Below are positions 24,481-27,767 of a stretch of 64,000 bases of DNA, piece after piece. The notes under the pieces were generated by a model. The model was not told the origin of the DNA. It saw nothing but the letters and a program-made list of their open reading frames with translations, and did not search any database. The number at the start of each line of letters is the position of its first letter. The first letter of the stretch is position 1. Location of the stretch: NCBI RefSeq assembly GCF_056712565.1, contig NZ_CM160072.1. One strand, written 5' to 3'. The translations under genes were made by a program, and so were the position numbers.

Positions 24481-25254
24481 TCAGAATTTCCAGGTCAGAT
24501 GGGCTGCAAGTTGCAGACCGTTATAATCATCGGTTGGGGTGTCGTACCACACTTTACCTGCCGTCAACCCGAGATTAAGTTGCTCAGTCAGCGGTTGAAT
24601 ACGTTGCAAACTGATGCTCTTCATGCTGCCGTAGCGTGTTTCTGGCGTCCAGTCGTAGGTGTAAGCACCTGTTCCGCGGCTTAGCCATAGTTGCGTGTAA
24701 CCAGTGCCGCGCGGGTCATTCAGACGCACGGAAATCATATTGCTGTAACTACCACCTGCATCGCTGGAGTCATAATGGGTATAGCGATAGCTGGTGATCA
24801 CCGGGCCAGTATAGAGTGATATGCCACCTTGCCAGGCATCGACTTCGACATCATCGTAATATTTAGTGTAGCGATAACCGGTCGTGAAAAGCGTTTTTGG
24901 CAACAGGGCCAGGTTAATATCCTGACGAAAATCCTGGCGGGCAAAGACCGGCGTATTATCCGCAAAGGCAATACCCGTTCGGGTTGTCAGCCAGTTATTC
25001 CATTTGTACCAGACTGCACCCTGGCCGCGAGTGGCATTGAAATGTTCAGTTTCATAATCACGACGCCCCTGGGAAAGATTAAAAAGCAGCGTTGCGTTTT
25101 CAACTTTCGCCACCAGTTCAGCATACGCTAAATTACGGTTGCCATGATCGCCAGAATAATCGGTAAAATCGTAGCCCGCGGTAATGGAAGTTAACCCGGC
25201 ATAAACGGGTAATGCGCTAAAAATTGCCGCCGCTAATAACGTCCGTTTTATCAT
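24481..25254 (-). CDS. yaiO: Outer-membrane beta-barrel protein
   Basis: 257 aa; signal peptide MIKRTLLAAAIFSALPVYA; alternating aromatic/polar strands; C-terminal TWKF. Confidence 0.75.
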   Translation of the reverse strand: MIKRTLLAAAIFSALPVYAGLTSITAGYDFTDYSGDHGNRNLAYAELVAKVENATLLFNLSQGRRDYETEHFNATRGQGAVWYKWNNWLTTRTGIAFADNTPVFARQDFRQDINLALLPKTLFTTGYRYTKYYDDVEVDAWQGGISLYTGPVITSYRYTHYDSSDAGGSYSNMISVRLNDPRGTGYTQLWLSRGTGAYTYDWTPETRYGSMKSISLQRIQPLTEQLNLGLTAGKVWYDTPTDDYNGLQLAAHLTWKF

Positions 25255-25255
25255 T

Positions 25256-25966
25256 TTAATCTCCTGTACGGATAAGTTCTTGTCGGAGTGAATAAGTTCC
25301 GGTAGGTAAATTACGTTCTACAATCACGCGCGGGCCAAGTTGCGTGTTCGGGGAAATAATTCGCCCAGGCAAAATAATAACTTGTACGCCAAGGCGTGAA
25401 CGCTGCCCGATATAACAACCTAATTTATCGCATCCGGTAGCGATAATTCCATCTGGAGTTCGAACAGACACGGGCTGTTCATCCAGACGATGATTACTGG
25501 TTCGTACTTGTGCGCCCAAATATGCCTGGTTTGCAACTACCGAGTCGGCAATAAAGCATTGCGGACCAATCGTGGCTTCCGCTTCAATAACCGCATTTTT
25601 AATTTCGGTGGCAAAACCAATTCTTACGCCATTGCTGATTATTGTGCCAGGACGAATAAACGCATAATTACCTATTAGGCAGTTTGCGCCAATCACTACC
25701 GGACCCTGAATAACGGCACCGTGGCAAATACGGGTATTCGCGCCGATAACAACCTCACCGGCACTTTCATCAATAATCACCTGGTCTGCAATCTGAATAT
25801 TTTTCTCTTTAACATTAAGCTTCAGATAGTTTTTCAGTTCCTGTGACAGAAGGGTGGGAATAAGCGGTTGACACTTCCACCAGTGCGGAATAGCGGGTGG
25901 GTTTGTCGCGCTGAGGTTCGCGTCCAGTAAAAAAGGCAATAAGTCCATAAATAATCCAGATGGCAT
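25256..25966 (-). CDS. yaiX: Hexapeptide-repeat (left-handed beta-helix) acyl/acetyltransferase; start codon uncertain
   Basis: Repeated [LIV]-G-x-x-x-x hexapeptides (VIGANTRICHGAVIQGPVVIGANCLIGNYAFIRPGTIISNGVRIG); 5' end overlaps yaiP by up to 152 bp; stop is 1 bp from yaiO ATG. Confidence 0.6.
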   Translation of the reverse strand: MPSGLFMDLLPFLLDANLSATNPPAIPHWWKCQPLIPTLLSQELKNYLKLNVKEKNIQIADQVIIDESAGEVVIGANTRICHGAVIQGPVVIGANCLIGNYAFIRPGTIISNGVRIGFATEIKNAVIEAEATIGPQCFIADSVVANQAYLGAQVRTSNHRLDEQPVSVRTPDGIIATGCDKLGCYIGQRSRLGVQVIILPGRIISPNTQLGPRVIVERNLPTGTYSLRQELIRTGD

Positions 25967-27071
25967 AAGCTAATAATACATACACAACGGAAAGCGGTGC
26001 TAAAGGCACCAACAACCAGCAACGATGAAACCAGGCGCTAAATGCACCAATAACACAAACTACGCCGACCCAGATAAGCGGGAACATTGCCAACACCACA
26101 CCATGTGGCCCGGTGGTGATGAATTCATTAAACCAGGTAGTGAGATAAATACCAACGCCATAAAGCACAACCAACAGCATAGGAAATATACTGAAGATAC
26201 CGAAGCGGCTAAATAAAAGTCTTTTATGCAGGCGCATACAGACCGCGTAGCCCACAATCCAACGCCGCCAGCGGCGCCACTCCTCACGCGGACTGTTACA
26301 TTCCTGTGGGTATACGATGCAGCGATTCGCCTGCCGAATACGGTAGCCGTTTGCCACCAATGTCCAGGTGAGATCAAGGTCTTCGACTTTAGTACGATCC
26401 GAGAAACCGAACTTACGCAATACATCAGTACGGAACATCCCGCAGGCACCGCTGATGATAAACGGTGCGCCGCCCAGAAGCTGCTGTAGCGTGCGCTTCA
26501 TAACAATCATCGGCAACTTTACGGTCGCGCGGATGTGTAGCTGCTGTAGCGTGCGCTTCATAACAATCATCGGCAACTTTACGGTCGCGCGGATGTGTGG
26601 TAACAGACCCGCGCCTTTCAACGCAGTAGAGGGAATGCCGCCTACGGCATCAGCGCCACGCTCAATTTCCGCCAGCATATAGCCCATTCCGTCTTGATCG
26701 GGCGGAACATAGGTGTCGGCATCACTTAAAAAAACCTGATCGCAGGTGGCGTAATTGAGGCCATTCATCAGCGCACCACCTTTACCGGTATTTTTTTGCG
26801 TGACGGCAACAAAGCGGTCGCCCCATTTGCGTTTGACTTCCGCCATGACCGCTTCGGTATTGTCCATGGAGCCGTCGTTAACGCAAATTACCCGGCAAAA
26901 ATAAGGGTTACGCAGCAGATTATCCAGTGACTGCGCCAGACACGGGCCTTCGTTATAAGCAGGTATAATGGCGTCAATACAGCCTTTCTTTTGGCTGGGC
27001 TTACGCCTTAACGTACTCAGAAACCATAGCAATATTGCTACGGCCATACATATAAAGATCCAGGTTTTCAT
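25815..27071 (-). CDS. yaiP: Integral-membrane family-2 glycosyltransferase (synthase-like topology)
   Basis: 418 aa; N-terminal TM, CVNDGSMDNT and SDAD (DxD) motifs, EEWRRW (QxxRW-like), four or more C-terminal TM helices; contains a 20-aa tandem duplication. Confidence 0.75.
   Translation of the reverse strand: MKTWIFICMAVAILLWFLSTLRRKPSQKKGCIDAIIPAYNEGPCLAQSLDNLLRNPYFCRVICVNDGSMDNTEAVMAEVKRKWGDRFVAVTQKNTGKGGALMNGLNYATCDQVFLSDADTYVPPDQDGMGYMLAEIERGADAVGGIPSTALKGAGLLPHIRATVKLPMIVMKRTLQQLHIRATVKLPMIVMKRTLQQLLGGAPFIISGACGMFRTDVLRKFGFSDRTKVEDLDLTWTLVANGYRIRQANRCIVYPQECNSPREEWRRWRRWIVGYAVCMRLHKRLLFSRFGIFSIFPMLLVVLYGVGIYLTTWFNEFITTGPHGVVLAMFPLIWVGVVCVIGAFSAWFHRCWLLVPLAPLSVVYVLLAYAIWIIYGLIAFFTGREPQRDKPTRYSALVEVSTAYSHPSVTGTEKLSEA
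26479..26598. repeat. Perfect 60-bp tandem duplication (2 copies) inside yaiP
   Basis: agctgctgtagcgtgcgcttcataacaatcatcggcaactttacggtcgcgcggatgtgt at 26479-26538 repeated exactly at 26539-26598; encodes HIRATVKLPMIVMKRTLQQL twice in frame. Confidence 0.95.
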
Positions 27072-27080
27072 GCAATTTGC

Positions 27081-27767
27081 TCAAAGAATCATTTTATGAA
27101 TAACAAAACCTTCACCCAGATCGCTATTGACCTGTTGCCCGCGAAATTGAGCAACTGCACGCAGACGCTCCGGGCGCATATAATCTCGCTGGCTCTGACT
27201 TTTATGTTTTTTTAACGCAGTCAGTTTAAGAGAAAAATATTCTTCTTTCACGGATTCAAAAACCTGAGGCATAAATGAAAGCCAGGTACTTGGTGTTTCA
27301 TAGCCGAGAATTTGCGGAATAGCGCGACAGGCAACCATTGAGGCTTGATAGACTGCAAGATGATCCTGATGGCGGTCAGCATCATGCATGGTATATACAC
27401 GTATAATTTCAACATCAGAGGGAATTTGATTTTTTATGATGTTTTCCAGGGCAGAAATCATATCATTGAGCTGTAAATGAGCGCGGGTGTCAGCAAAATT
27501 AAGATGAATAGTTTGGTGGCACCCTAATATCTTTAGAGCGTTGCGTGATTCTTCGTGGCGATCGATTATTCCATCTACGCCAGAATTACCGGTAGTCATC
27601 ACTACGGTAGCAATATAAATTCCTTTTTGCGCAAGGCGAGCTAGCGATGCGCCACAGCCTAATTCTATATCGTCAGGATGCGCGCCAATGGCAAGGATAC
27701 CCTTTCTTTTATTTGCCGAAGAAAGGATCGCTGAATCTAAAACCTTATCCACTTTATGACACTCCAT
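27081..27767 (-). CDS. yaiS: PIG-L/LmbE-family de-N-acetylase
   Basis: 228 aa; LAIGAHPDDIELGCG and HQDH metal-binding motifs; stop is 9 bp from yaiP start. Confidence 0.75.
   Translation of the reverse strand: MECHKVDKVLDSAILSSANKRKGILAIGAHPDDIELGCGASLARLAQKGIYIATVVMTTGNSGVDGIIDRHEESRNALKILGCHQTIHLNFADTRAHLQLNDMISALENIIKNQIPSDVEIIRVYTMHDADRHQDHLAVYQASMVACRAIPQILGYETPSTWLSFMPQVFESVKEEYFSLKLTALKKHKSQSQRDYMRPERLRAVAQFRGQQVNSDLGEGFVIHKMIL

Follow-up and report, generated by a model that had tools for sequence, protein, structure and literature searches.

How far inside one gene can the next one begin? The question is raised by yaiP and yaiX, two adjacent genes for making a surface sugar polymer, which were followed up here in a 64,000-nucleotide stretch of contig NZ_CM160072.1 (RefSeq assembly GCF_056712565.1). 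This stretch, hereafter the window, is 100% identical to Escherichia coli strain HS13-1. The initial annotation had placed the first ATG of the yaiX frame (25966, minus strand) 152 nt inside yaiP, whose stop occupies 25817-25815, had found no in-frame ATG 3′ of that stop, and had pointed to a GTG at 25780 as an alternative. Open reading frame (ORF) coordinates and translation confirm all of this: the GTG is indeed in the yaiX frame, and the ORF from ATG 25966 has methionine at residues 1 and 7 only. The second of these had been missed, and corresponds to another in-frame ATG at 25948-25946, 18 nt 3′ of the first. The yaiX frame, which is the yaiP frame +1, is open from a stop just 5′ of ATG 25966 to its own stop at 25258-25256. 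As detailed below, yaiX probably starts at ATG 25948, which would give a protein of 230 aa and an overlap of 134 nt with yaiP. Whatever the exact codon, it is highly likely that yaiX coding begins 5′ of the yaiP stop, at or before a conserved Trp-Trp (WW) pair, so that the two genes share at least 68 nt.

The first line of evidence is the anatomy of the junction, compared across 25 loci. Seven are of an ancestral type, found in Pseudomonas viridiflava, Acinetobacter, sphingomonads and other Proteobacteria. In these, YaiP ends in ...TGREPxRDKPTRYxxVVx*, and yaiX starts with an ATG or GTG directly before TGGTGG, overlapping yaiP by 14 nt (ATGTGGTGGnnTGA). The Arg of the TRY triplet is encoded by AGG in six of the seven, giving a GAGG Shine-Dalgarno (SD) sequence about 7 nt 5′ of the yaiX start. 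The TGGTGG hexamer is present in every locus compared. Two loci from the Candidate Phyla Radiation (CPR) carry yaiX directly after a PIG-L gene, with no overlap, and their YaiX still starts with M/V-WW in the absence of yaiP; the WW pair therefore belongs to YaiX, and is not a by-product of the Val-Val codons of yaiP. These two loci (L015 and L016, metagenome-assembled genomes of Candidatus Kaiserbacteria and Paceibacterota) encode YaiX homologues at about 50% identity, with no glycosyltransferase between them and the PIG-L deacetylase, which suggests that the deacetylase-acetyltransferase pair is the older unit. Among the 530 YaiX homologues found by protein search, 86 were aligned, and 50 of those start exactly one residue before WW (MWWRELQ... 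or VWW...).

The other 18 loci are of an enteric type: the window, E. whittamii, Citrobacter, Superficieibacter, Enterobacter, Salmonella, plasmid-like copies and others. Here the ancestral ATG before WW is gone (CAC in the window), the Arg codon has become CGN (CGC in the window), which abolishes the AGG-based SD, and yaiP has its stop shifted by 2-24 codons, leaving 19 extra YaiP codons in the window. TGGTGG is nonetheless kept in 18/18 loci despite saturated synonymous divergence. So is a second short sequence, ATGGA, found 21-23 codons 5′ of WW and drawn from the Tyr/His and Gly codons of the yaiP motif I-[YH]-G; among ancestral-type loci it occurs at this site in 3 of 7. An SD-like TGGAT precedes it in 14 of the 18 (TGGGG/TGGGT in L020 and L023, TGGAA in L021 and L037). 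Several enteric-type loci have an in-frame stop 1-8 codons 5′ of the conserved ATG, and in none of the 18 does a stop interrupt the yaiX frame within the overlap. Measured alike in 14 of them, the overlap spans 83-149 nt, and the YaiP tail differs between genera in both sequence and length. The initial annotation had envisaged that homologues might show yaiP ending earlier and yaiX beginning well downstream. Distant YaiP homologues do end earlier, by 20 codons; as for the second point, their yaiX begins 5′ of the position of the E. coli yaiP stop.

One lineage, that of the Salmonella-type loci (L023, L037 and L038), looks intermediate. Its YaiP still reads RYAVVD..., like the ancestral RYAxVVD*, but with one codon deleted. 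With this deletion the old ATG disappears and another arises two codons before WW (A-M-P-W-W); ATGGA, further 5′, is also present.

Is the overlap selected in both frames? Synonymous differences observed in codon alignments were compared with those expected from per-pair, per-degeneracy rates in the non-overlapping part of each gene. For the yaiP frame, this was done on 14 loci in 9-codon windows and on 9 divergent representatives (12-codon windows upstream), any pair of which differs in 45-71% of identical-residue codons. In yaiP 5′ of the overlap, the ratio of observed to expected differences is 1.00±0.09 for the 14 loci (minimum 0.67, 362 windows) and 1.01±0.08 for the representatives (minimum 0.65, 349 windows). 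It then drops to 0.21-0.31 and 0.35, respectively, in a first zone of 12 codons (zone 1) that begins with the Trp-Ile pair before ATG 25948, returns to 0.7-0.94 and 0.92 over a linker of 10 codons, and falls again to 0.14-0.55 and 0.36 in zone 2, from the Tyr codon three before WW to the yaiP stop. Both zones lie about 8 standard deviations below the upstream mean in the representatives. In the yaiX frame, the same ratio is 0.09-0.35 in codons 1-21 and about 1.0 from WW onward. The two profiles mirror each other: in either half of the overlap, constraint falls on the older frame, and the YaiP tail is effectively free.

At the conserved ATG itself, the wobble T of the Tyr/His codon and the Gly GGA are invariant in the 14 loci, with no differences where 21.5 and 62.3 were expected. 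The ancestral-type loci serve as a control: their ratio is 1.0-1.2 at the Tyr/His-Gly site, suppression being confined to the last 7 or so codons, and thus zone 1 is specific to the lineages from which the old start is gone. In the yaiX frame, the codons that never vary in this zone (GGA, ATT, GCC, TTT, TTT, ACT, GGA) preserve D/E-L-L-P-F-L-L-D, a pattern that argues for translation of this frame there, beyond the mere presence of a ribosome-binding site. Conservation of the overlap in both frames, the check put forward in the initial annotation, is thus found: both are open in 18/18 enteric-type loci, and synonymous change is suppressed in the yaiP as well as in the yaiX frame. With such strong dual-coding signatures, the open overlap is more than chance. 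The anatomy of the junction, its conservation and these signatures of selection can all be read directly from the alignments.

Other sources of constraint on zone 1 were considered. A scan of both strands at 25600-26200 yielded no promoter-like site, and no Rfam family was matched, apart from a chance-level rne5 match elsewhere. An antisense promoter or a structured RNA was accordingly rejected, all the more so as ATG 25948 has less local structure than any other canonical candidate; PMC4666370 does mention an antisense RNA inside yaiP, without a position. A third-frame ORF at 25834-26022 (62 aa) was also set aside, as it is broken by stops in other genera.

Candidate starts were then ranked by simple anti-SD pairing together with a local-folding proxy. 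With an anti-SD duplex of -3.1 kcal/mol and a local minimum free energy of -3.9, ATG 25948 is the best of the canonical (ATG/GTG/TTG) in-frame candidates. The unconserved in-frame codons ATT 25798 (GTT in 1 of 11 other Escherichia sampled) and ATT 25792 score close to it. No SD-like pairing is seen at ATG 25966 (+0.9 kcal/mol), ATT 25891 (+0.4), CTG 25849, CTG 25837 or GTG 25780, and of all candidates ATT 25891 lies in the most strongly folded local context (-18.5 kcal/mol).

These observations can be assembled into a path from one arrangement to the other. Starting from a junction with the yaiX ATG/GTG-TGG-TGG 14 nt before the yaiP stop and an SD supplied by the AGG Arg codon, the enteric lineage lost the yaiX ATG, its SD and the yaiP stop. 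We infer that initiation then moved to the upstream in-frame ATG, made from the Tyr-Gly codons (TAT GGA) in the last membrane-helix region of yaiP and lying behind the weak SD TGGAT. The first 22 YaiX codons (MDLLPFLLD and a variable linker) would accordingly be new, laid over a conserved YaiP C-terminal motif, while the last 19 YaiP codons would be an unconstrained tail covering the old N-terminal region of YaiX with its WW pair. This would require internal initiation on the yaiP message. The initial annotation had offered a true overlap of about 50 codons as one of three alternatives, next to a non-ATG start and a mis-called terminus. The overlap is the best supported of the three; its start at 25966 is not, the likely one being ATG 25948, with 45 codons and 134 nt. 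Translational coupling, suggested along with it, fares less well. In its classical stop-start form it describes the ancestral 14-nt arrangement only, and is unlikely in the window, where it would require ribosomes to move back 134 nt after terminating on yaiP. Nor does the TAATG found at the end of yaiP (25817-25813, ATG 25815-25813) help: it is out of the yaiX frame, opens an ORF of just 12 codons, and reads TAATAT in E. whittamii, so that it was rejected as a coupled start. A -1 slip on the A5 run after TAATG was likewise discarded, there being no canonical slippery heptamer and the ATG being unconserved.

It is tempting to go one step further and to see the junction as a functional two-way overprint, in which, after the loss of start, SD and stop, the peptide MDLLPFLLD arose within the DNA encoding the conserved membrane-proximal C-terminal motif of YaiP and is now selected for itself. 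This is a tentative proposal, to which we give somewhat less than even confidence.

Several points weigh against a start at ATG 25948. Its SD is weak, with a GGA core only. The 18 enteric-type loci are related and represent perhaps 7-9 deep lineages, so that 18/18 overstates their independence. The 10-codon linker is almost free of constraint in the yaiX frame, and translation through it is deduced from zone 1 and the open frame for that very reason; its openness is uninformative: with T missing from position 2 of every yaiP codon there, no choice of synonymous codons can produce a stop. Besides the conserved ATG, three lineages (L008, L021 and L023/L037/L038) have one more, 2-4 codons before WW, which is the publicly annotated start in L008 and L021. 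Finally, structure prediction, discussed further on, gave one confident AlphaFold2 model out of five (88 against 52-67).

The main rival start is the near-cognate ATT 25891-25889, three codons before WW. It would be a shifted relic of the ancestral site, yielding a protein of 211 aa and a 77-nt overlap, perhaps with the long form made as well. Several facts speak for it: the position is always occupied by a possible initiator (ATT in 7, ATG in 3, ATA in 3 and TTG in 1 of 14 loci, with the same four codons in L027, L029, L037 and L038), the yaiP Tyr codon it derives from reads TAT in 13/13 loci (0 differences against 30 expected), and the suppression in zone 2 begins exactly there. The boundary of the K-12 RefSeq pseudogene maps to it, and public annotation starts at the ATG in this position in Superficieibacter and in Enterobacter sp. 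PGRG2. However, AUU and AUA initiate at about 1% or less of the efficiency of AUG in E. coli, and to this must be added the unfavourable pairing and folding given above. The region where its SD should lie is free to vary at synonymous sites, the conservation of the codon is equally well explained by that of a hydrophobic residue (Ile/Met/Leu), and a start there leaves the enteric-specific constraint on zone 1 unexplained. On balance this start is unlikely.

What about the first ATG of the open frame, at 25966, which would make YaiX 236 aa long and the overlap 152 nt? All 12 Escherichia sequences compared have it, but it is confined to that genus, being absent in Citrobacter and the other genera. 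In L009, L010, L022, L023, L025, L027 and L038, in-frame stops separate its position from the conserved ATG. The yaiP Tyr codon that forms it varies between TAT and TAC, with 45 differences against 35.7 expected, and no SD-like pairing is found, which together make it quite improbable.

Starts at the codons used by RefSeq, with overlaps of 0-35 nt, are very improbable. They have the weight of annotation behind them, and GTG 25780 (174 aa) avoids the overlap altogether. RefSeq is itself inconsistent between strains, though: it uses CTG 25849 (197 aa) in this strain, the CTG equivalent to 25837 (193 aa) in most sampled strains, and GTG 25780 in others, every yaiX model inspected starting at one of these three non-ATG codons. 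In addition, among 11 other Escherichia sampled across the identity range, 8 have GTA in place of GTG 25780, suppression of synonymous change in yaiP lies well 5′ of all three, and the yaiX frame behaves as normal coding sequence from WW on. All three starts cut a family-wide motif, because the WW pair lies 5′ of the CTGs and of the GTG, and they would remove 33-56 conserved N-terminal residues, many of them confidently modelled. The GTG named as the nearest alternative in the initial annotation is therefore contradicted, with yaiX-frame selection well upstream of it. The suspicion of a mis-called terminus is justified for RefSeq, with its at least three different downstream non-ATG starts, and not for the ORF itself. 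ENA gene calls are mostly made from ATG 25948 (230 aa; cluster P0001, 1737 members). Comparative evidence shows the short RefSeq models to be, in all probability, the wrong ones, and the long overlap remains.

Little credence can be given to a +1 ribosomal slip within the overlap, for instance on the T6 run GCC TTT TTT ACT (25937-25926), by which YaiP and YaiX would be fused without separate initiation. The frame relationship is the right one, the ancestral start and SD are gone, and the run sits in conserved zone 1 and occurs in 12 of the 18 enteric-type loci. Yet it is broken in the other six (L005, L021, L022, L023, L027 and L037), whereas ATGGA is universal; it has no in-frame stop or rare codon where known +1 sites have one; ancestral relatives make the two proteins separately; and the constraint on zone 1 begins 5′ of the ATG, as that of an initiation region would. 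Hardly more credible is the view that yaiX lacks an efficient start in enterics and is silent or decaying there, its open frame being unused: insertion sequences (IS) have struck it and all its initiation signals are weak, but across genera, at 50-97% identity, the frame remains intact and shows purifying selection, at least 80% of the yaiP-yaiX region is found in 4819 of 5426 E. coli genomes, and the repaired gene gives a phenotype (PMC3531124).

That phenotype brings us to the protein itself. Repaired yaiX′ makes K-12 clump, and the clumping requires YaiP (EcoGene 3.0, PMC3531124); yaiX is thus functional when intact. YaiX matches the Pfam families Hexapep PF00132 (2e-17), LbH_EIF2B and GMPPB_C. 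Its best Foldseek match is the left-handed beta-helix (LbetaH) domain of ST0452 (E = 4e-13, 33% identity over 186 columns), with GlmU and LpxD also found. In the best AlphaFold2 model (mean predicted local distance difference test, pLDDT, of 88), the beta-helix is at pLDDT >90, residues ~21-57, all 5′ of GTG 25780, are at 77-97, and residues 1-18 are below 50. YaiX is hence predicted to be a stand-alone LbetaH acetyltransferase resembling the C-terminal domain of GlmU. The closest solved fold is the GlmU-type LbetaH domain of Sulfolobus tokodaii ST0452 (PDB 5z09, 2ggo), from which YaiX differs in lacking the nucleotidyltransferase part and in having its own N-terminal WW segment. A 71-aa K-12 YaiX fragment was overexpressed in a 2026 study (PMC13058169). 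The papers found to mention yaiX, including PMC3531124 and PMC13058169, do not address its start or its overlap with yaiP.

In K-12, RefSeq treats yaiX, broken by IS2, as a partial N-terminal pseudogene fragment, and it is the 5′ edge of this fragment that maps to ATT 25891. The gene has been struck independently by insertion sequences, IS2 in K-12-like strains and IS1 in another isolate (genomes H6-H8 and H14), which hints at recurrent inactivation of the operon.

The coordinates of the junction and of its neighbours are given in Table 1. The gene order on the minus strand is yaiS, yaiP, yaiX, yaiO, frmR, frmA.

Table 1. Positions of genes and sequence elements around the yaiP-yaiX junction in the window
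Feature	Position	Strand	Description
yaiS	27767-27081	minus	PIG-L deacetylase (Pfam)
yaiP CDS	27071..25815	minus	Family-2 glycosyltransferase, 418 aa here; Pfam Glycos_transf_2 9.9e-26; from the ORF list and RefSeq of HS13-1
First in-frame yaiX ATG	25964..25966	minus	236-aa model, 152-nt overlap
Weak SD-like TGGAT	25954..25958	minus	yaiP Trp and Ile codons; 6 nt between GGA core and ATG 25948
Zone 1	25923..25958	minus	yaiP codons W-I-I-Y-G-L-I-A-F-F-T-G; yaiX frame MDLLPFLLD
Proposed yaiX CDS	25948..25256	minus	230 aa, ATG 25948-25946, stop 25258-25256; hexapeptide/LbetaH protein
yaiP/yaiX overlap with proposed start	25815..25948	minus	134 nt, ~45 codons, yaiX in +1 frame
Conserved ATG	25946..25948	minus	Last two bases of yaiP Tyr/His codon and first G of Gly codon; then always GA
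Linker	25893..25922	minus	yaiP codons R-E-P-Q-R-D-K-P-T-R; YaiP residues highly conserved, yaiX-frame residues nearly unconstrained
Relic of ancestral start site	25883..25895	minus	CGC Arg 25895-25893 for AGG; ATT 25891-25889; CAC 25885-25883 for ATG
TGGTGG (Trp-Trp motif)	25877..25882	minus	62-67 nt 5′ of yaiP stop; context ...AIPHWWK...
YaiP C-terminal tail	25818..25874	minus	19 extra codons; the lost ancestral stop corresponds to GTG 25874-25872 in the alignment
Two CTG codons	25849-25847 and 25837-25835	minus	RefSeq yaiX starts, 197-aa and 193-aa models
yaiP stop TAA	25817-25815	minus	
GTG	25778..25780	minus	In yaiX frame; some RefSeq records, 174-aa model
yaiO	25254-24481	minus	YaiO-family outer-membrane barrel (Pfam)

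The window has some peculiarities of its own. At 25871-25873, just after WWK, it reads TGT (Cys) where 11 of 11 other Escherichia compared have CGT (Arg), with Val against Ala in the yaiP frame. Within the glycosyltransferase domain of yaiP, a perfect 60-bp in-frame tandem duplication at 26479-26598 adds 20 residues (HIRATVKLPMIVMKRTLQQL, twice) and makes YaiP 418 instead of 398 aa long. Among the E. coli matches listed, HS13-1 alone aligned without a 60-nt gap there; the duplication looks strain-specific and could impair YaiP. RefSeq labels yaiS here a pseudogene "missing C-terminus" (window 27081-27767; L001 834-1211). Yet its ORF encodes a full-length product of 228 aa that matches the intact PIG-L protein of strain 4/1-1 from one end to the other; the shortened call falls together with a small YkiC-like gene on the opposite strand (L001 1386-1505). 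At the other end of yaiX (25250-25265), its TAA is separated by one base from the ATG of yaiO, which is preceded by an AGGAG (-7.4 kcal/mol) inside the yaiX 3′ end, a strong signal that contrasts with the weak ones at yaiS, yaiP and yaiX.

How does this junction compare with known overlaps? Same-strand genes overprinted out of frame include phage lambda Rz/Rz1, Bacillus subtilis comS within srfA, and E. coli gndA within gnd. As in these pairs, yaiP and yaiX would draw two proteins from one stretch of DNA in two frames, with synonymous variation suppressed and the younger frame less constrained. Unlike nested small genes, they form a terminal overlap of two old genes, and the overprint would run both ways, YaiX having acquired 22 codons at its N-terminus over YaiP, and YaiP a tail of 19 codons over YaiX. 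Classical coupling involves short stop-start overlaps (ATGA, TAATG, or up to ~20 nt), as in dcm-vsr. It is matched by the ancestral yaiP-yaiX junction, with its SD inside yaiP, and by the yaiX-yaiO junction, but not by the likely yaiX start in the window, which lies 134 nt 5′ of the yaiP stop; the TAATG at that stop is out of frame and unconserved. For bacterial overlaps longer than 60 nt, the usual explanation is mis-annotation of the start. This is partly the case here, since calling the longest ORF, from ATG 25966, probably adds 18 nt too many and pipelines disagree, but unlike mis-annotated overlaps, the long one between yaiP and yaiX stands by comparative evidence. It is thus a well-supported new example of a known phenomenon, overprinting.

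The consequences are first practical. The gene pair is present in about 4,800 complete E. coli genomes, which gives the reach of the annotation issue, and the correct N-terminus is needed for functional work on YaiX, whether with the 71-aa K-12 fragment or in repairing the pseudogene. A change from TAT to TAC, silent in yaiP, destroys the yaiX ATG, so that clean separation-of-function mutations are possible. More generally, the loci make it possible to trace how a coupled junction of 14 nt evolved into a probable reciprocal overprint of 134 nt. If ATG 25948 is indeed the start, YaiX would be made by internal initiation within a translated membrane-protein gene, an arrangement that could set the ratio of YaiX to YaiP.

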